NCBI GenBank assembly: GCA_905188025.1
Contig: CAJJKI010000001.1
Span: 86,615-150,614 of the forward strand
Direction of reading: 5' to 3'
DNA: 64,000 bases
Source of the DNA: an uncultured Eubacteriales bacterium
GTDB lineage: Bacteria; Bacillota_I; Bacilli_A; RF39; UBA660
Shown: positions 3,170 through 50,825 of the stretch, one piece after another
Layout of the letters: each line of letters begins with the position of its first letter
Numbering within the stretch: the first letter of the stretch is position 1
Notes under the pieces: model-generated
Database searches by the model: none
What the model was told of the DNA's origin: nothing
What the model saw: only the letters and a program-made list of their open reading frames with translations
Position numbers and translations under genes: made by a program

Positions 3170-4000
3170 TTATGATACACTTACTATCTTTTGTGTCGTA
3201 ATCTTTATACTACCTATTCCCCCATCAAGTAAAATCTTATTTCTTCCTGTTCCATATATTCCATCATCATACATTTCTTCACCATTATAAGTAGCACTAC
3301 CTATACCTTTATCTATTGAAACAGTATACTCATCATCAAACAAGTTAACTACTAAAGCCCCTACTCCAGCATTAATCTTATTTTCTCCTCTTAAATATCC
3401 TGAAAAAGTAACTTTACCAGCACCCATATCCAAGTCCATATCATTAACAGTAGCTTTAACTATTTCCATAGCTCCAGCTCCTCCATTAACTTCCATCTCA
3501 CTATATACTTCTATATCCTCTAGTCTTACCTTTCCTGCTCCTAATTCAAGTGATAAATCTTCAGTTTTCAACCCATTAATTTCTACCTTACCAGCACCAT
3601 TATCTATATCAATATCTTTAAATCTATAATCATTAGGAATAAAAATATATAAGTCACCAGAATATCTATCTAACATACTATGATCTTCTTCATAAATATA
3701 TAATGTATCCTTATCCATTCTACTTTTAATATATTTATTATTAGTACCAACACTAAATTTATCACCTTGTTTAATAATTATATTTGTTCTCTTTACTGAT
3801 ATATCTAACTTCTCACTTATCTTAGCTTCAGTTATTTCTACAGTATTCTCATAATTAGTATCTTCTTCATATGAATTATCATTATCAACTATATTTCCTA
3901 ATAACATAACTCCATAACATATCATAGATATAATACTAACTGTTAAAAATATTGCAAAACCCATAGCCAAGTATTTAATCATCTTTGCCACGTTTGTCAC
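3170..4000 (-). CDS. membrane-anchored DUF4097-like beta-repeat protein (putative adhesin fold)
   Basis: N-terminal TM helix, then repeated (D/N)xGAGK(V) beta-strand repeats (NGAGKVEI, LGAGKVRL, GGAGAMEI, MGAGKVTF, DGGIGSIKI). Confidence 0.55.
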   Translation of the reverse strand: MTNVAKMIKYLAMGFAIFLTVSIISMICYGVMLLGNIVDNDNSYEEDTNYENTVEITEAKISEKLDISVKRTNIIIKQGDKFSVGTNNKYIKSRMDKDTLYIYEEDHSMLDRYSGDLYIFIPNDYRFKDIDIDNGAGKVEINGLKTEDLSLELGAGKVRLEDIEVYSEMEVNGGAGAMEIVKATVNDMDLDMGAGKVTFSGYLRGENKINAGVGALVVNLFDDEYTVSIDKGIGSATYNGEEMYDDGIYGTGRNKILLDGGIGSIKITTQKIVSVS

Positions 4001-4673
4001 AAATAGTCACTCCTCCAAACATACAAGTAGCATCTATATACACAGTTGTTTTTTCATCATAGTTTTTATCTTCTCTCTCATCAGCTACTCCTCCAAATAT
4101 TGGCATTGATGATATTTTAACATTCACATCACTAGGAACATAAACAGTTATTCCTCCAAAAATAGCATTAGCTTTAATAAGAACGGTATCTTTAATAATA
4201 GCCTTTCTTATATCACACTTAATTCCTCCAAAAATAGCATTAAGTTCACAACCCTCAAACTTTTCTTTTGTAAAATCTAAATCTTGTCCACCAAAAATAG
4301 CTCCATATTCCTGAGTATCTTTATTATTTATTTTTTTAATCTCTTTTCTCACTTTATTACCAATAGTATCCTTAAATATAATCGATAAACCTACTAGTAT
4401 TAAAATAACTGGTAACAATAGTTTCCATAAAACTTCAAATCTAACTATACCACGGCATCCTAATAATAAAGCTACACCTACAGCAATACCTATTAAACTA
4501 CCTGACTTATCTTCATCAGTAAATAGTCCAATAAAGCAAGGAATAATTATAAATAAAGTCCACCATCCAGCAAAGAAAATATCTATCTTTCCTATTCCTA
4601 AAGCATTAATACCTACAATAACTCCTATCACTATCAACAATAATCCCCATATTAAATTTTTCTTTTTCATCAT
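3975..4673 (-). CDS. LiaF-like cell-wall-stress membrane protein (DUF2154-like C-terminus)
   Basis: Four N-terminal TM helices, then repeated xIFGG motifs (AIFGGQ, AIFGGI, AIFGGIT, PIFGGV, CMFGGV). Confidence 0.5.
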   Translation of the reverse strand: MMKKKNLIWGLLLIVIGVIVGINALGIGKIDIFFAGWWTLFIIIPCFIGLFTDEDKSGSLIGIAVGVALLLGCRGIVRFEVLWKLLLPVILILVGLSIIFKDTIGNKVRKEIKKINNKDTQEYGAIFGGQDLDFTKEKFEGCELNAIFGGIKCDIRKAIIKDTVLIKANAIFGGITVYVPSDVNVKISSMPIFGGVADEREDKNYDEKTTVYIDATCMFGGVTICDKRGKDD

Positions 4674-36711: not shown

Positions 36712-37424
36712 TTATTGAAGTTCTCTAATAACAGTCTTACTAGTAATCTGTCCTGTATATTTAGATACATGATATTCATAAACATAATTCTTTCCATTTT
36801 CATCAGGTGCCCCGTACACGTCTTTTACTTCATATACCCATTCACTACCGCCATCAATATTCTTAACTATACCAGAGTTTTCTCTTTTTGTAATGCCCAT
36901 TGATTCCATAACAATACATTGAGCTTCTCCCTCTTCTACTAACTTTGAAGTACAATTAGGGCTACCTATTACATTTCCAGTCTCAACTCCTATATAATAA
37001 ACACATGACTGCGTTCTATAAGCAAAAGTTACTTTATATACACAAGTACCATCATTAGATAATGCTACAACTGATTCAGGAGCTAACTTATCACAATACT
37101 TTCCAGTACCAACACTAGCTCCCATCATAGAAGCCACTTTCTTACCAGCTTCCTCATTAGTTAAAGCACTATATACATAATCACATTTTTCTAATGTTCC
37201 ATATCCTCCTGAGCCACTATTTCCTCCACTAGTCCCAGTACCAGTATTCTCTTTCCCATCATCATTTAAAAAACAATATTAACAACCTTATTATCAAACT
37301 TTTTCTTTATATCATTATTCTTATTATTCCCCTTATTTCTAACTATCAAAAATCCCCCTATCAAGAATCCAATTAATAATATCATAGCAATAAACATTAT
37401 TATCATTTGTTTTTTCTTCTCCAT
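36712..37424 (-). pseudogene. membrane-anchored PepSY-like protein split by a frameshift in a T6 run
   Basis: ATG 37424 encodes a TM anchor and stops at TAA 37266-37268. The neighbouring frame is open from 37278 into track ORF 36712-37137. One extra T in the T6 run (plus strand A6, 37268-37273) fuses the two. Confidence 0.55.
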
Positions 37425-37505: not shown

Positions 37506-38090
37506 CTATATTTTACTATTATATTTATCTTTAAACATCAATAAAGCTTTCTTCTGAAAATAATTACTCTTATCATATTCTATTCCTACTTTTTCTAGTG
37601 CATCCTTCAACTTATCTACAGTATCATACTTTAGATTAGCTTCTACTTCAATAAATAAATACTTATCATTTACATATTGTATTGCTAATTCAAGTCCATC
37701 TTTCTCATAAACTACTATATGATCATCTATTCTAATTAACTCTCTATCATATCCTAAACATTTAACTATCTCCACTCCTGAAGAAGCATTCTCTATCCTG
37801 CAATTACATTTTCCCTGTTCTACGATATTCCCATCATCATCATATTCTTTATATTTATATGTTATATAATGTTTCCTATCATCAATACTCCTAATAAGTA
37901 CACATTTACTAAGTATCTTAAGTATCTCTTTATCATTCTCACTACCATTAACTATCACATCCTTATACACCATATACATATCATGTAACATATAATCATC
38001 TATCTTTTTAAACTCTCTACTAATAATCTTATCAATTAACTCTTCACACCCATCATAAACCATAACAGTTATCTCATCTTCATACTTCAT
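37506..38090 (-). CDS. CYTH-like domain protein
   Basis: Pattern EDEITV...LIRSI...ITYKYK...RIE...LFIEVEA...VGIEYDKSNYFQK follows the CyaB/CYTH strand order. The ExExK lysine is not conserved. Confidence 0.45.
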   Translation of the reverse strand: MKYEDEITVMVYDGCEELIDKIISREFKKIDDYMLHDMYMVYKDVIVNGSENDKEILKILSKCVLIRSIDDRKHYITYKYKEYDDDGNIVEQGKCNCRIENASSGVEIVKCLGYDRELIRIDDHIVVYEKDGLELAIQYVNDKYLFIEVEANLKYDTVDKLKDALEKVGIEYDKSNYFQKKALLMFKDKYNSKI

Positions 38091-47192: not shown

Positions 47193-49193
47193 TCAATTTT
47201 CAGCCTTGTAAACGTCATAATATTTACTATCAGGAAAATCTACTCCTGTATATGAGCTCCCATTACTTCCTACTAACCCAGTAAATCCAGAATTTCCACT
47301 CCATAAAGTACCATTGGAATTAGCAAATACTCCCATTACCCATTCCCACGATCCTCCGGACATATCATATACCCCTGTTATATTACCAGTTGTACTAGCC
47401 ACTTTACTTATATCATGGGTAGTACTTTTAATATCGGTATTATATTCAAATAAATATCCATCCCAGGTGTAAAAACCATACCAATTATATTGCGTCGTAG
47501 AAGTCTGGTCAGTATATACAGTATTTATGGCTGTACTCCCTCCAACATTTCCACCACTACGGCCAGTATGCATATCAGTTGAATTATTAAAATTTATTTC
47601 CCTATTCACTCCGTATTTAGAATGTGATAAATAAGCTACCGCTCCCCATTCACTATTCTTCATCATATGAGCATCAATCTTTGAAGTAGAACCATATACA
47701 CTTGTGCCTAATTTTTGTGCTGTGGTAAACTGCGCTGATATTTTTTGATTTCTAAGTGACTGAAGATTTGGTTTTATTGTCGGAGTATCCTCTATACCAG
47801 TAGTTTCAAATTTACCGACCCATATTCCATTAAGAATCTCATTTTGTTCTAGTATTCCATCACTATTATTATCCCACCAAAAAGCTGGATGAGTTATATA
47901 ATCACCTATTTGAGGAACAGCACTCTTAACTACTGTTTCATTAGTTTCAATAAATGTACCAGTTGGAGTTATTTGATCAGTATTATCTTCATTATACATG
48001 TTAATCATATTTTCAATCGGAATAGGACCTGCATCTTCTACACCCTGTACTATTGAACTTCCAGTATTCAAAACATTATTTACGTCAGTAGTAGCTTGTT
48101 CTAAAGTATAGCTAGTATTCATTTCAGCTGATATAAAACTATGAAACCAAGTAATTAACTTTTGTTTTTCTAAAGCAGTAACACTATATGGAGCATTATA
48201 ACATTCAGAATTATCAATAAGATTAGGATTTTCTAAATCAGCACAACTACCAATCGTTTGTACATTTGGAACATAAGCCTTAGTATTTTTATTTTCAAAA
48301 ACTATTTGTATTTCCTGTTCTTGACCGGTTTTACTTTCATTATCTACTGACCATATTTTATATTTATACCTTGGTATCCATACATAATATGCTAATATGT
48401 CATCTTCATTTACTGTAACCCCTGTAGTATTCAAATAATTTGCTCTTGAATTATTATTAACAAGCACTACATTTGCCCATTGTTTTTTCTTATAATTGTA
48501 CCAGCTAGTATCATCTTTTGATATTGTTTTAGTTATTCCAGTATCCGATATAACTACCGGTATCATTCCATCATCTAAATCAGGTACATTAGGTTCTACC
48601 GGTATTGCATCAGTACAGCTACCATTTAATGATAAACTGAATGATTGATCCATCGTATCACTGCTAGTCTCATTTGCATCTAACCATATCCATAAATAAT
48701 ATGTACTAGTGTCACTTGCACTAAAAGTTTCACTATCTAAAAGCCTTATCTTGTTTCCTGCTTTCTTACCATTAAAGTTTCCACTAGCTATAACTCCAGT
48801 AGTATTACTAGTACTACTCGTAGTAAATGCATACTTAAAGTTAACACTATTTGATAGACCACTATCTAGTTTATTTATATCTAGCCATAAATCCATATAT
48901 ATAGTTTTACCACTTTCATTAATTGTCGGAGTTACCTTTACTTCTCTTTTTATATAATTAGCTGAAGTACTACTGTTAACTAAAGTTGGTACAATTATTG
49001 CACTATTATTAGTAATGCTTCCACCACCATCTGCTGCACATGAAAAAGTTCTCTCTACCGTAAATACAATATTAGTCTTTTGCGCTTCACTACTTATCCA
49101 TGAAAAGTATGCTAAAGATCCACCAATTATTGTAAATATAACAGTCAATATTACCAATACTAAAATTATCTTTTTATTCTTATCATTATCCAT
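47193..49193 (-). CDS. secreted/surface protein: SipW-type (TasA/camelysin-like) signal peptide + beta-rich region + FGE-sulfatase (SUMF1)-like domain, prematurely terminated
   Basis: N-terminus KKIILVLVILTVIFTIIGGSLAYFSW. GVYDMSGGSWEWV matches the FGE-family GxxDMxGNxWEW block. Likely start is ATG 49193, 7 nt after GGAGGT; the track start is a TTG. Confidence 0.7.
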   Translation of the reverse strand: MDNDKNKKIILVLVILTVIFTIIGGSLAYFSWISSEAQKTNIVFTVERTFSCAADGGGSITNNSAIIVPTLVNSSTSANYIKREVKVTPTINESGKTIYMDLWLDINKLDSGLSNSVNFKYAFTTSSTSNTTGVIASGNFNGKKAGNKIRLLDSETFSASDTSTYYLWIWLDANETSSDTMDQSFSLSLNGSCTDAIPVEPNVPDLDDGMIPVVISDTGITKTISKDDTSWYNYKKKQWANVVLVNNNSRANYLNTTGVTVNEDDILAYYVWIPRYKYKIWSVDNESKTGQEQEIQIVFENKNTKAYVPNVQTIGSCADLENPNLIDNSECYNAPYSVTALEKQKLITWFHSFISAEMNTSYTLEQATTDVNNVLNTGSSIVQGVEDAGPIPIENMINMYNEDNTDQITPTGTFIETNETVVKSAVPQIGDYITHPAFWWDNNSDGILEQNEILNGIWVGKFETTGIEDTPTIKPNLQSLRNQKISAQFTTAQKLGTSVYGSTSKIDAHMMKNSEWGAVAYLSHSKYGVNREINFNNSTDMHTGRSGGNVGGSTAINTVYTDQTSTTQYNWYGFYTWDGYLFEYNTDIKSTTHDISKVASTTGNITGVYDMSGGSWEWVMGVFANSNGTLWSGNSGFTGLVGSNGSSYTGVDFPDSKYYDVYKAEN

Positions 49194-49213
49194 AAGCTTT
49201 ACCTCCAAATGGT

Positions 49214-49236
49214 ACTAAAGTATTCTACTTTAATAC
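49214..49236. repeat. left arm of a perfect 23-bp inverted repeat
   Basis: ACTAAAGTATTCTACTTTAATAC is the exact reverse complement of 49382-49404. Contains the internal palindrome AAAGTA-TTC-TACTTT. Confidence 0.95.
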
Positions 49237-49334
49237 ACTTGAAATTTTTTGTAAGGTATTGAAAATAAAGAGATTATATGAATTTAATGTATTTCAAAAC
49301 ATAATATTTTTATCAATTTAAAACATATTCTATC

Positions 49335-49363
49335 TTTACATAAAACCTTATATTTGCTATAAT
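49335..49363 (+). promoter_or_regulatory. strong extended -10 promoter inside the IR-bounded segment, facing right (away from the surface-protein gene)
   Basis: TTTACA 49335-49340, 17-nt spacer, TGc TATAAT 49355-49363. Confidence 0.6.
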
Positions 49364-49381
49364 TATATCAAGATAGAAATG

Positions 49382-49404
49382 GTATTAAAGTAGAATACTT
49401 TAGT
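49382..49404. repeat. right arm of the perfect 23-bp inverted repeat
   Basis: GTATTAAAGTAGAATACTTTAGT; followed by GTCATTTTTTGTTTTT. Confidence 0.95.
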
Positions 49405-49433
49405 GTCATTTTTTGTTTTTAAATATTAAATTA

Positions 49434-49462
49434 TTGATATTTTTATATCTTTATATTATAAT
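49434..49462 (+). promoter_or_regulatory. promoter TTGATA-17-TATAAT of candidate antitoxin sRNA (copy 1)
   Basis: -35 at 49434-49439, -10 at 49457-49462. Confidence 0.6.
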
Positions 49463-49468
49463 GAATAT

Positions 49469-49577
49469 AGATGAAGGAAACTTCATACAATAAAAAGGAA
49501 CACTTAGTATTAGTGTGCTAAGTACTCCAATTTGGTTTGTGTACCTAACAAACTATGTTAGGTACGTTTTTTATTTT
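49469..49577 (+). ncRNA. candidate ~110-nt antisense sRNA (type I antitoxin), convergent with the small toxin ORF
   Basis: Bounded by its promoter and terminator. Has a 5' hairpin ATGAAG-GAAA-CTTCAT (49471-49486) and no ORF. Its 3' end overlaps the toxin stop codon and the predicted toxin 3' UTR. Confidence 0.5.
49541..49577 (+). terminator. intrinsic terminator
   Basis: Perfect 10-bp stem GTACCTAACA-aacta-TGTTAGGTAC followed by GTTTTTTATTTT. Confidence 0.75.
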
Positions 49578-49657
49578 ATAATCAACAAGATGATTATTAA
49601 TAGTAAAAGGAGGATTATAATACTATGGAAAATATTTATATAATCTTTCTTACTCAT
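49571..49657 (-). CDS. candidate type I toxin: 28-aa hydrophobic peptide MSKKDYINIFHSIIILLLLLIIILLIIK (below the ORF-track cutoff)
   Basis: ATG 49657 lies 6 nt after GGGAGGTG. Charged N-terminus, a single TM helix, terminal Lys. The 5' UTR can fold CCUUAUUCUUAU-AAA-AUAAGAUUGGGAGG, occluding the SD. Confidence 0.5.
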   Translation of the reverse strand: MSKKDYINIFHSIIILLLLLIIILLIIK

Positions 49658-49722
49658 TAAAATCACCTCCCAATCTTATTTTATAAGAATAAGGAGTACC
49701 TAACTGCTAAGTGTTCTCATAC

Positions 49723-49751
49723 ATAATAACAGGTTATTTTTGTCTTGTCAA
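49723..49751 (-). promoter_or_regulatory. promoter TTGACA-17-TATTAT of the toxin mRNA
   Basis: Minus strand: -35 at 49746-49751, -10 at 49723-49728. Confidence 0.6.
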
Positions 49752-49806
49752 ACATTTTATCTTAAAGTTAATTTTTCAAAAAATTAATTAACTTTAAGTT
49801 AAATAC

Positions 49807-49835
49807 TTGATGAAAAATAGTTTTTATATTATAAT
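49807..49835 (+). promoter_or_regulatory. promoter TTGATG-17-TATAAT of sRNA copy 2
   Basis: -35 at 49807-49812, -10 at 49830-49835. The -10 and downstream sequence are identical to copy 1. Confidence 0.55.
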
Positions 49836-49841
49836 GAATAT

Positions 49842-49918
49842 AAGTGAAGGAAACTTCATTCATATTAGAGAAACACTTAGTTCTATTTGAACCTAGCAAT
49901 CTTGTTAGGTAATTTTTA
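49842..49918 (+). ncRNA. second, shorter copy of the sRNA (no intact toxin partner)
   Basis: Shares TTATATTATAATGAATATA, TGAAGGAAACTTCAT and AACACTTAGT blocks with copy 1. Ends in ACCTAGCAA-tc-TTGTTAGGT + AATTTTT. Confidence 0.4.
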
Positions 49919-50010
49919 TACTAAACAACAAAGGCAATAATACACAAGCCTCACCTACATTTCGTTTAGATAAAAAATAGCACTATATGTTTCTCTATAT
50001 ATTTTTTACG

Positions 50011-50048
50011 CCAAAAAATAACATATGACTTGATGCATATGTTATTTT
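50011..50048 (-). terminator. intrinsic terminator after the nucleoside phosphorylase gene
   Basis: Minus strand: AATAACATATG-loop-CATATGTTATT followed by TTTTTGG. Confidence 0.6.
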
Positions 50049-50057
50049 TATTTATAT

Positions 50058-50825
50058 TTACATTTCTCTAGCTAATTCTAAAGCTAACTCCATTACTAGT
50101 ATCTTATCTTCTACTCTTTCATTTCCTGATAAGCTTCTCTTCTCCCAGTAATCATTATCTAAGTTATCAGCTGCATAAAAGAAAGTCATTAAATCTATTC
50201 CCCTAAAATCACATACTGCCTGTAATGCTGCTGCTTCCATCTCTACACAAATAGCACCATTATTCTTCATCTTAATAACCTTCTCTTTAGTCTCTCTATA
50301 AAAAGCATCCGTTGTCCATGTAGTACCTTCTACATAACTATATCCTTTATTATTTAATATTCTTTTAAATACATTACTATATTTTTTATTAATATCTATA
50401 AATAAAGAATCCTCTATATAATGGTAACTTAATCCATCACCTCTAATAGCTTTATTAGGAATAATTATAGCTAAATCTGCTACATTTTTATCAAGTACTC
50501 CACAATTACCAAATACTATAAACTTATTAGCCCCCATCGCATGCACATCTTCTATACAAGTAGCAGCAGCCGGAGCCCCTACACTCATCATAAACATAGC
50601 GTACCTTTTTCCCTTATATTCTATTCTATATATTTTCTTAACTGTATCAGTATAATCTAATTCTCCTATTACTTCTCCTTGATATTTTTCTATTATCTTA
50701 TCAAATAATACATGTGAATAACATGCTATTGCTATCTCTGGCATACCACCTATCTTCTTAACAAAATCACTTGGATTAATTATTGCTACTTTTTCTTTAG
50801 AATATCTTTCTATCATCTTTATCAC
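50058..50825 (-). CDS. nucleoside phosphorylase (PNP_UDP_1 family, uridine-phosphorylase-like)
   Basis: SVGAPAAATCIED, RGDGLSYHY, WTTDAFYRET and VEMEAAAL motifs. Confidence 0.75.
   Translation of the reverse strand: MIKMIERYSKEKVAIINPSDFVKKIGGMPEIAIACYSHVLFDKIIEKYQGEVIGELDYTDTVKKIYRIEYKGKRYAMFMMSVGAPAAATCIEDVHAMGANKFIVFGNCGVLDKNVADLAIIIPNKAIRGDGLSYHYIEDSLFIDINKKYSNVFKRILNNKGYSYVEGTTWTTDAFYRETKEKVIKMKNNGAICVEMEAAALQAVCDFRGIDLMTFFYAADNLDNDYWEKRSLSGNERVEDKILVMELALELAREM

Follow-up and report, generated by a model that had tools for sequence, protein, structure and literature searches.

A probable chromosomal type I toxin-antitoxin module with a decayed tandem copy in an uncultured gut bacterium of the Bacilli

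General features of the module

The 64,000-nucleotide (nt) stretch of DNA analyzed here, referred to as the window, was taken from contig CAJJKI010000001.1 (positions 86,615 to 150,614, forward strand; assembly GCA_905188025.1) of an uncultured Eubacteriales bacterium (GTDB lineage Bacteria; Bacillota_I; Bacilli_A; RF39; UBA660). An interval of 849 nt without annotated genes (49209-50057) probably carries a chromosomal type I toxin-antitoxin (TA) module of the Gram-positive type, in which the toxin messenger and its antisense RNA overlap at their 3' ends. The intact copy, module A (49434-49751), makes up half of a tandem pair. The other half, a decayed copy extending from 49807 to ~50010 (module B), had not been included in the initial annotation of the sequence. 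As judged from comparative sequence data, a selected gene for a micro-membrane peptide has its 3' end in common with a conserved, structured RNA that converges on it. Module A comprises the features listed below, where ORF stands for open reading frame, SD for Shine-Dalgarno sequence, sRNA for small RNA, UTR for untranslated region, and aa for amino acids.

49723..49751, minus strand: toxin promoter TTGACA-17-TATTAT with a TG upstream of the -10 box
49491..49716, minus strand: predicted toxin mRNA of ~226 nt, minimum free energy -66.4 kcal/mol (z=-6.9), its 5' end pairing with its 3' end
49693..49716, minus strand: 5' arm of the long-distance interaction, GAACACUUAG..GUUAGGUACUCC, pairing with 49498-49528
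49692..49696, minus strand: upstream anti-SD CUCCU, pairing with GGGAG of the SD in the nascent 5' fragment
49676..49686 (copy 1, in the 5' UTR) and 49571-49581 (copy 2, across the stop codon), minus strand: 11-nt direct repeat TTATAAAATAA
49664..49671, minus strand: SD GGGAGGTG (GGGAGGUG), read from the sequence, 8 nt upstream of the ATG
49571..49657, minus strand: candidate toxin ORF MSKKDYINIFHSIIILLLLLIIILLIIK, 28 aa plus stop, preceded by the SD and with homologues
49498..49528, minus strand: 3' arm of the 5'-3' lock, at once the predicted terminator hairpin of the toxin mRNA (U-tract 49497-49491) and the complement of sRNA hairpin 2
49491..49577, both strands: predicted transcript overlap by cofolding, ~87 nt of perfect complementarity with two hairpins per RNA
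49434..49462, plus strand: sRNA-A promoter TTGATA-17-TATAAT
49469..49577, plus strand: sRNA-A, candidate antitoxin of ~109 nt with predicted ends (fold z=-4.97) and with homologues
49471-49486, plus strand: sRNA-A 5' hairpin with a GAAA loop, followed by an A-rich linker
49497-49528, plus strand: sRNA-A hairpin 2, followed by a linker
49541-49565, plus strand: sRNA-A terminator hairpin of 10 bp, with a U-tract to 49577

Promoters and toxin gene

Both promoters claimed in the initial annotation are present, each agreeing with the consensus at 11 of 12 positions. Just 12 sites of at least this quality occur in the window; the plus strand has two of them, both inside the module interval, and three of the 12 best sites fall in 49209-50057 (P=0.0015, first-order Markov simulation). 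The SD and the 28-aa ORF were likewise found as described. Among the 483 small ATG-initiated ORFs of the window, the toxin ORF has the most extreme hydrophobic run (15 residues of I and L, the longest stretch of I/L/V/F; the runner-up has 10), and it is one of only 13 preceded by an SD. The promoters, the SD, and the toxin ORF are well beyond chance. The encoded peptide consists of a charged head, M-x-K-K-D, and a single predicted I/L-rich transmembrane (TM) helix. Three homologous toxins (MNKKDSLITSLVIIIYLLLFLLLIVLV, MAKKDFLITSLLIIILLLLLIILKI, and MTKKDFLISSLLIIILLLVFLLFIVLI; 25-27 aa) have the same layout, and the length over all copies ranges from 25 to 28 residues. On none of the same-species contigs compared had gene callers annotated this ORF.

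In ungapped codon alignments of the four copies, the proportion of synonymous differences was saturated (pS 0.56-0.95) against a non-synonymous proportion (pN) of 0.16-0.36, with dN/dS of 0.12-0.48 where computable. The synonymous changes fall at the conserved K3, K4, D5, the I13-I15 block, and L18, and a strong SD lies upstream of the ORF in 4/4 copies. By these codon comparisons, the toxin ORF is a genuine coding gene under purifying selection.

The convergent sRNA

The existence of a non-coding plus-strand RNA with a GAAA hairpin, as initially annotated, was confirmed at the level of structure: sRNA-A folds with -34.2 kcal/mol (z=-5.0) and holds no SD-preceded ORF. The perfect 10-bp terminator was confirmed as well, and its T-run covers the toxin stop codon. 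Homologues of sRNA-A were detected on contigs L016 (one), L044 (two), and L047 (one), in addition to the paralogue in module B. In a five-sequence alignment without module B, 91.9% of the cells of the consensus structure can pair, compared with 29-41% in slid registers, and six pairs show compensatory changes, one of them from A-U to G-C in the 5' hairpin of L047. A nine-sequence MAFFT alignment including module B was misaligned and yielded no useful covariation. Conservation within the RNA is highest in the AACACUUAG motif and the 5' hairpin.

Folding of the toxin mRNA

On the toxin strand, an 11-bp hairpin (-11.2 kcal/mol) is formed from 49528-49498, with UUUUUAUU after it; therefore, the two transcripts are predicted to overlap 3' to 3' over ~87 nt. 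This bears out the earlier proposal of a toxin-strand terminator near 49491 and an overlap of ~85 nt. Cofolding of sRNA-A with the toxin mRNA gave a full-length duplex of -142 kcal/mol.

A further structure, which had escaped the initial annotation and is in our view the dominant regulatory one, is a 5'-3' lock pairing the first ~24 nt of the mRNA with its last ~30 nt through GAACACUUAG/CUAAGUGUUC and GUUAGGUACUCC/GGAGUACUUAGC. The lock of module A was calculated at -29.1 kcal/mol versus -10.4 +/- 2.8 kcal/mol in shuffled sequences (0/500). Trapping of the SD by its own leader, as initially suggested, is predicted for the nascent 5' fragment, where CUCCU/GGGAG pairing around UCUUAU/AUAAGA sequesters the SD. 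All four copies fold such a local anti-SD/SD hairpin in their nascent 5' segments (4/4), and the three homologues use an equivalent pyrimidine stretch of divergent sequence. The predicted probability that the SD is unpaired is ~0.05 in the full-length, 3'-truncated, and nascent toxin mRNA alike; its predicted partner is the upstream anti-SD in the nascent chain and a segment of the coding region in the full-length RNA. The folding models thus support a toxin mRNA that is closed by the 5'-3' lock and whose SD is always trapped.

The same elements were recovered by RNAalifold from the four toxin mRNAs, namely the 5'-3' interaction, the helix between the SD and the coding region, and the terminator. 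Helices 1-3 of the 5'-3' interaction comprise 26 pairs, five with compensatory changes. Over the whole consensus, 91.3% of the cells pair versus 39-51% in slid registers, and seven compensatory pairs were counted versus 0-3, a number reached by 1/500 shuffles. The SD helix is strand-specific, with 92% of the cells pairing on the toxin strand versus 67% on the other strand. Covariation drawn from four or five sequences is to be read as giving indications and not proofs of these structures.

A second contact between the two RNAs had been proposed, in which GUUAGGUAC of the toxin 5' UTR pairs with the sRNA terminator arm GUACCUAAC. The complementarity exists, together with a further one of ACUUAGC to GCUAAGU, but pairing in trans was no better than in shuffles (-28.6 vs. 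-23.8 +/- 3.7 kcal/mol, p ~0.1). Duplex prediction, which had been named as a check, returned the full-length duplex and gave no preference to the 5' UTR contact. A par-like action of the sRNA on the toxin 5' UTR in trans is not supported by this shuffle comparison, and GUUAGGUAC is better explained, on the modeled fold, as belonging to the 5'-3' helix that the toxin mRNA forms within itself. A miniature inverted-repeat transposable element, or another mobile element with terminal inverted repeats, was also considered and rejected; the repeats are the two arms of the mRNA 5'-3' helix. Copies of the module were found only locally and in tandem; the rest of the 64-kb window and ~400 kb of related loci contained none.

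The decayed tandem copy

Module B lies next to module A and consists of the following parts.

49807..49835, plus strand: sRNA-B promoter TTGATG-17-TATAAT, invariant in all contigs
49842..49920, plus strand: sRNA-B, a paralogue of sRNA-A with the same GAAA 5' hairpin, the AACACUUAG motif, and a terminator at 49891-49910
49862..49999, minus strand: decayed toxin side, 5'-3' pairing kept (fold z=-4.5)

sRNA-B is 85% identical to sRNA-A over 59 nt (nhmmer E=5e-17). The toxin side is without a good promoter and has retained an SD-like AGGTGAGG (49956-49949) and just a 9-codon ORF (49945-49916), which ends in LV-stop, as does the L044 toxin. Its 5'-3' pairing, which uses partly different sequence from that of module A, amounts to -22.6 kcal/mol versus -7.2 +/- 2.3 kcal/mol in shuffles (0/500).

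Homologous modules in related bacteria

Homologues were collected by exact-pattern scans of genome, metagenome, and viral collections and by way of neighboring proteins. The scans returned L016, L019, L022, and L023. Their other matches were unrelated chance occurrences in Rhizobium, Pontixanthobacter, marine viral contigs, a Gut-1-like element, and L056, and no phage-borne copy of the module was found in these collections, viral ones included.

A search in related genomes, suggested in the initial annotation, revealed complete modules in two other gut 'Bacilli' lineages, at a different locus between an M16 peptidase gene and lepA. Two complete tandem modules are located there in L044-46 (M16 identity 88%) and one in L047-49 (79%). 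Each has a promoter (e.g., TTGCAT-17-TACTAT), a strong SD, the ORF, and a convergent sRNA with its U-tract over the stop codon. At the same locus of L016, a gut metagenome-assembled genome (MAG) labeled 'Bacilli bacterium', an sRNA homologue is present without an opposite ORF. This RNA was considered as a lepA leader and rejected: it has a terminator, lepA has a separate promoter, and the relatives carry a convergent toxin at that place. The M16-lepA locus of a 68% relative (L054/55) is an empty 67-nt site, and that of a 62% relative contains other genes.

At the locus of the window, between the genes for PNP and ABC proteins, nothing in L029 (PNP 90% identical) separates the PNP terminator from the palindrome that in the window follows the modules, and species at 72-78% identity have short unrelated spacers and no module. 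The ~600-nt module pair is therefore an indel, as the L029 site is empty and the sister spacers are unrelated. Simple vertical conservation at the PNP-ABC locus was rejected, since sister species are without the module there.

These comparisons also bear on the idea of a trans-acting sRNA as the conserved element, with GGAACACUUAG as its seed and the ORF being incidental, or of the whole arrangement as an AT-rich coincidence. Orphan sRNAs without an ORF (L016, module B) and the high conservation of the AACACUUAG motif and 5' hairpin would suit a trans-acting RNA. However, the frame of the ORF, its SD, and its amino-acid pattern have been kept in four copies despite saturated synonymous divergence, and the promoters as well as the hydrophobic run far exceed what chance would give. 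Decay of the toxin side accounts for the orphans, with module B retaining an SD, the LV-stop end, and the 5'-3' pairing. We consider this explanation hardly credible.

Several observations were made at or near the compared loci. In L016, a 46-aa hydrophobic ORF (MNFFRLCGVFNIIILGVILLGKK...; 3883-4023, plus strand) lies between the orphan sRNA and lepA, over the lepA promoter, and is probably spurious. The PNP-ABC spacer of the sister species contains ~30-nt repeats (AAATACTATATATAGGGTAAATAAAAT-like) in variable copy number, the spacer being 220, 275, or 309 nt long depending on the sample. The Gut-1-like element, a chance pattern match unrelated to the module, is a structured element of ~100 nt with complementary ends TTAAGTGTTCCG...CGGAACACTTAG. 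It adjoins tRNA genes in MAGs of Clostridia and Eubacteriales and matches the Gut-1 RNA motif (RF01706) below threshold (38 bits vs. the gathering score of 50, E=3.5e-6).

L033 4260-4534, L034 4260-4479, and L035 4260-4568: repeat-bearing spacers
L011 65-101, L013 400-436, L014 530-566, and L015 5268-5304: Gut-1-like element

Variation within the species and loss of the toxin side

The neighboring protein is present on many human-gut metagenome contigs. In total, 16 same-species contigs were comparable across the module, one of them only partly, and promoters and variants were tallied on 15. Among the contigs compared, neither of the sRNA promoters varied, nor did the 5' hairpin of the sRNA or the shared terminator hairpin. 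The loop 49512-49514 has five alleles (AGT, AGA, GCT, AGC, and CGT) in 15 near-identical contigs, and the linker 49529-49539 is polymorphic as well. Between 49488 and 49540, 1/24 paired versus 12/29 unpaired positions are polymorphic (Fisher p=0.003).

The toxin side has been damaged repeatedly. A 54-nt deletion in L019/L023 takes away the UTR hairpin together with the SD and the start codon. The deletion in L039 covers 105 nt, precisely the stretch that separates the two TTATAAAATAA copies, and removes the SD and the whole ORF. Point changes weaken the toxin -35 box (TTGACA to TAGACA in L010, L041, and L042), the -10 box (TATTAT to TATCAT in L019 and L023), and the SD (GGGAGG to GGAAGG in L006). 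No point change was seen in either sRNA promoter in the 15 contigs. Loss of the toxin alone with retention of the sRNA was recorded in at least four independent cases (L019/L023, L039, module B, and the L016 orphan), and a toxin without its sRNA in none of the loci compared. This order of loss matches the decay expected of an addiction module.

The same record can be read in another way, namely as a real gene pair in which a benign small membrane protein of regulatory or structural function is tuned by a cis-antisense RNA with no addiction logic. Conservation and selection of the peptide would suit any functional micro-protein, the natural deletions show that the ORF can be dispensed with, the module has no link to mobile elements, and some 'toxins', as Fozo et al. 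note, show no toxicity in their native host (PMC2887945). Yet translation is blocked in layers, by the 5'-3' lock, by two alternative ways of trapping the SD, and by an antisense RNA that has a consensus promoter, as is typical of harmful products. The loss is one-directional (at least four toxin-only cases, no sRNA-only case), the point mutations cluster in the toxin expression signals, and the tandem arrays with presence/absence polymorphism at two loci resemble selfish TA systems. A benign peptide is, on balance, unlikely.

Several points weigh against the proposed type I TA module. The starts and 3' ends of both transcripts are predictions from sequence. The repeated loss of the ORF is also compatible with a dispensable, non-toxic peptide. 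The peptide matches no known toxin family and has no charged or aromatic C-terminal tail, a criterion in the search of Fozo et al. for type I toxins. The modules adjoin housekeeping genes, with no recognizable prophage or plasmid. The long-distance helices are only weakly strand-specific (93% vs. 88%), as befits an inverted DNA repeat, and the comparative set is small, with four intact toxin genes, six sRNAs, and three species-level lineages.

Comparison with known type I systems

Searches of Rfam, which holds 13 families of type I antitoxin RNAs (PMC8594479), gave nothing at the gathering score and no family membership at E<=10; the best sub-threshold match was ctRNA_pT181 (26.9 bits vs. 56, E=0.32). 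The peptide has no match in Pfam or NCBIfam at E<=10 except for a spurious one to SRTM1. A phmmer search with the 31-aa GTG-extended peptide against 1.84 billion representative proteins returned 0 hits, and tblastn against plasmids and phages found nothing. No similarity to TxpA, BsrG, BsrE, YonT, SprA1, or SprG was detected by any of Pfam, NCBIfam, phmmer, and tblastn. Members of the Ldr/Fst superfamily are recognized by a conserved Trp that follows the TM helix and is itself followed by clustered charged residues (PMC2887945); the peptide has no Trp, no charged tail, and no Pfam match, and does not belong there. The likeness to Fst, TxpA, and BsrG drawn in the initial annotation concerns the layout; by sequence, the peptide belongs to none of these families.

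In its organization, the module agrees with what is described for Gram-positive type I families: the ORF is small and hydrophobic, the SD is sequestered, the sRNA is convergent, and the 3'-3' overlap takes in both terminators (PMC4147584, PMC8594479), with the antisense RNA on the 3' side and partly overlapping the mRNA (PMC8594479). By sequence, it has a TM peptide within 20-60 aa, an mRNA within 150-400 nt with a predicted promoter and terminator, and a convergent antisense RNA on the 3' side, partially overlapping and with its own predicted promoter and terminator. Closing of translation by mRNA folding (SD/anti-SD pairing and the 5'-3' interaction) is predicted and accompanied by covariation. 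Among the recognized hallmarks of type I TA systems are duplication in tandem, ORFs that gene callers overlook, and overlap at the 3' ends (PMC2887945, PMC4147584, PMC8594479). The known architecture together with the lack of any family match therefore points to a new sequence family of a familiar kind, and this family appears real because related uncultured gut bacteria carry the same module.

The arrangement of txpA/RatA and bsrG/SR4, to which module A had been compared at the outset, is indeed repeated here: the genes are convergent, the 3' overlap includes both terminators, and the homologues are arranged alike. BsrG has 38 aa and a polar C-terminal tail, whereas the peptide described here has 25-28 aa and ends with the TM helix. 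The bsrG/SR4 pair, from the SPbeta prophage of Bacillus subtilis, shares the convergent genes and the small hydrophobic peptide toxin, an overlap including the terminators (~120 nt vs. ~87 nt here), and an SD partly sequestered already in the free mRNA (PMC4147584). SR4 acts from the 3' end by promoting bsrG decay and tightening SD sequestration (PMC4147584). The present module differs in having no sequence or Rfam similarity and no prophage location, and in the antitoxin target, which here would be the 3' arm of the 5'-3' lock along with the mRNA's own terminator.

In txpA/RatA of the B. subtilis skin element, the genes are also convergent with a ~75-nt 3' overlap, the antitoxin is not complementary to the ribosome-binding site, and the mRNA decays in an RNase III-dependent manner (PMC4147584). 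TxpA, however, has 59 aa and belongs to a recognized protein family, to which no match was found here, and its locus lies on an excisable element. The par system (fst RNA I/RNA II, Enterococcus faecalis pAD1) has convergent RNAs, a shared terminator sequence, a hydrophobic toxin of ~30 aa, and a 5' structure that limits translation, and its family is often tandem and missed by gene callers (PMC2887945, PMC4147584). Unlike the present module, par represses translation via the 5' repeats DRa/DRb, and here the 5' complementarity is no better than in shuffles; the Trp and charged tail of Ldr/Fst (PMC2887945) are also absent.

The mRNA fold resembles that of hok/Sok and aapA1/IsoA1, whose full-length mRNAs are locked by a 5'-3' interaction and SD/anti-SD pairing, features that T1TAdb uses as family descriptors (PMC8594479). 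Metastable local SD traps in the nascent chain are a further common trait, as described for a type I TA system of Helicobacter pylori (PMC6733600). In hok/Sok and aapA1/IsoA1, the antisense RNA lies within or over the 5' part of the mRNA, whereas here only the 3' 87 nt are overlapped; activation by 3' processing is established in those systems, and the sequences and host phyla are unrelated. In the modeled structures, a 5'-3' lock like that of hok and aapA1 is here combined with a 3'-overlapping antitoxin.

Proposed mode of action

By analogy with bsrG/SR4 and txpA/RatA (PMC4147584), the sRNA would make its first contact with the mRNA where the loops of the two shared hairpins complement each other. 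The contact would then extend to a ~87-bp duplex; besides covering the stop codon, this duplex would invade both the terminator hairpin and the lock's 3' arm. As in the two B. subtilis systems, decay of the RNase III type might follow and/or the SD would stay closed. Upon loss of the labile sRNA, the peptide would be made and inserted into the membrane, presumably with the KKD head in the cytoplasm, and growth would stop.

A wider reading is possible but tentative: the modules may represent a patchy, unrecognized type I TA family of uncultured gut Bacilli, with an unusual three-way switch in which one 3' segment of the mRNA serves at once as terminator, lock arm, and antitoxin landing site, and in which loop and linker are under diversifying selection that keeps tandem modules orthogonal. 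The five loop alleles of near-identical strains would reflect this, in a way similar to the loop sequences by which incompatibility groups of plasmids are defined.

Genomic setting and neighboring features

The window has a G+C content of ~28%, and almost all of its genes are on the minus strand. It includes the str operon region, and a sporulation gene (YunB domain) is nearby. No relevant plasmid or phage relative of the region was found by blastn against plasmids and phages. The module interval is flanked by two minus-strand genes.

50058-50816, minus strand: gene of a PNP_UDP-family phosphorylase
47193-49208, minus strand: gene of a 671-aa product, ~500 nt from the toxin promoter on the same strand

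The position of the second gene allows for a different explanation, in which the minus-strand transcript would serve the 671-aa gene as a long leader or upstream ORF, with the plus-strand RNAs regulating that gene by antisense action or transcriptional interference. The shared strand and short distance (~500 nt) speak for it, as do a further plus-strand promoter (49335-49363) and palindromes in between. Against it, four contigs (L001, L002, L004, and L010) have no 671-aa gene and both modules unchanged, the homologous modules at the M16 peptidase-lepA locus have no such gene near, and two hairpins, one with a U-tract, separate the ORF from the 671-aa gene. This explanation is very improbable, and the tandem type I TA pair remains the preferred reading of the interval.

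In the 671-aa product, a TM or signal segment at the N-terminus is accompanied by a weak FGE-sulfatase-like domain. Its gene is hypervariable among strains with identical flanks (length 629-751 aa), and in L001, L002, L004, and L010 its place is taken by unrelated sequence with a 61-aa ORF. A palindromic site (AAATGGTAyTAAAGTA..TACTTTA) occurs in two copies, at 49207-49232 and 49377-49402, with a spacing of 170 nt; the pair brackets the promoter and 5' UTR of the 671-aa gene. The palindrome marks the edge of the strain-variable region and in L029 stands directly 3' of the PNP terminator. The near-consensus plus-strand promoter at 49335-49363 (TTTACA-17-TATAAT with a TG) is directed away from the 671-aa gene and would yield an RNA of ~45 nt, a hairpin plus a U-run (~49370-49415, z=-4.2). 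The arrangement could represent an operator pair or another antisense element. At another site of the window, an SD-preceded 52-aa ORF, MEKKKQMIIMFIAMILLIGFLIGGFLIVRNKGNNKNNDIKKKFDNKVVNIVF (~37269-37424, minus strand), lies between the minus-strand ORFs 36712-37137 and 37506-38090; with its one TM helix, it is probably an unannotated small membrane protein.

Conclusions

Most known type I TA systems come from cultured Proteobacteria and Firmicutes, and their ORFs, too short for gene callers, leave them under-annotated. The locus would add to them a family from uncultured human-gut bacteria that has no match in the protein or RNA databases searched. The kind of system is unsurprising, and the finding is of interest chiefly to specialists in TA systems and small proteins. 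The material at hand consists of four peptide variants, six sRNA variants, toxin-null alleles, two loci with empty sites, and a decayed tandem copy. It bears on the toxin-first decay of chromosomal type I modules, on the working of 5'-3' mRNA locks in Gram-positive systems with 3' overlap, and on whether loop variation insulates paralogous modules. The alignments can serve as seeds for covariance and HMM models with which the family may be annotated in metagenomes.

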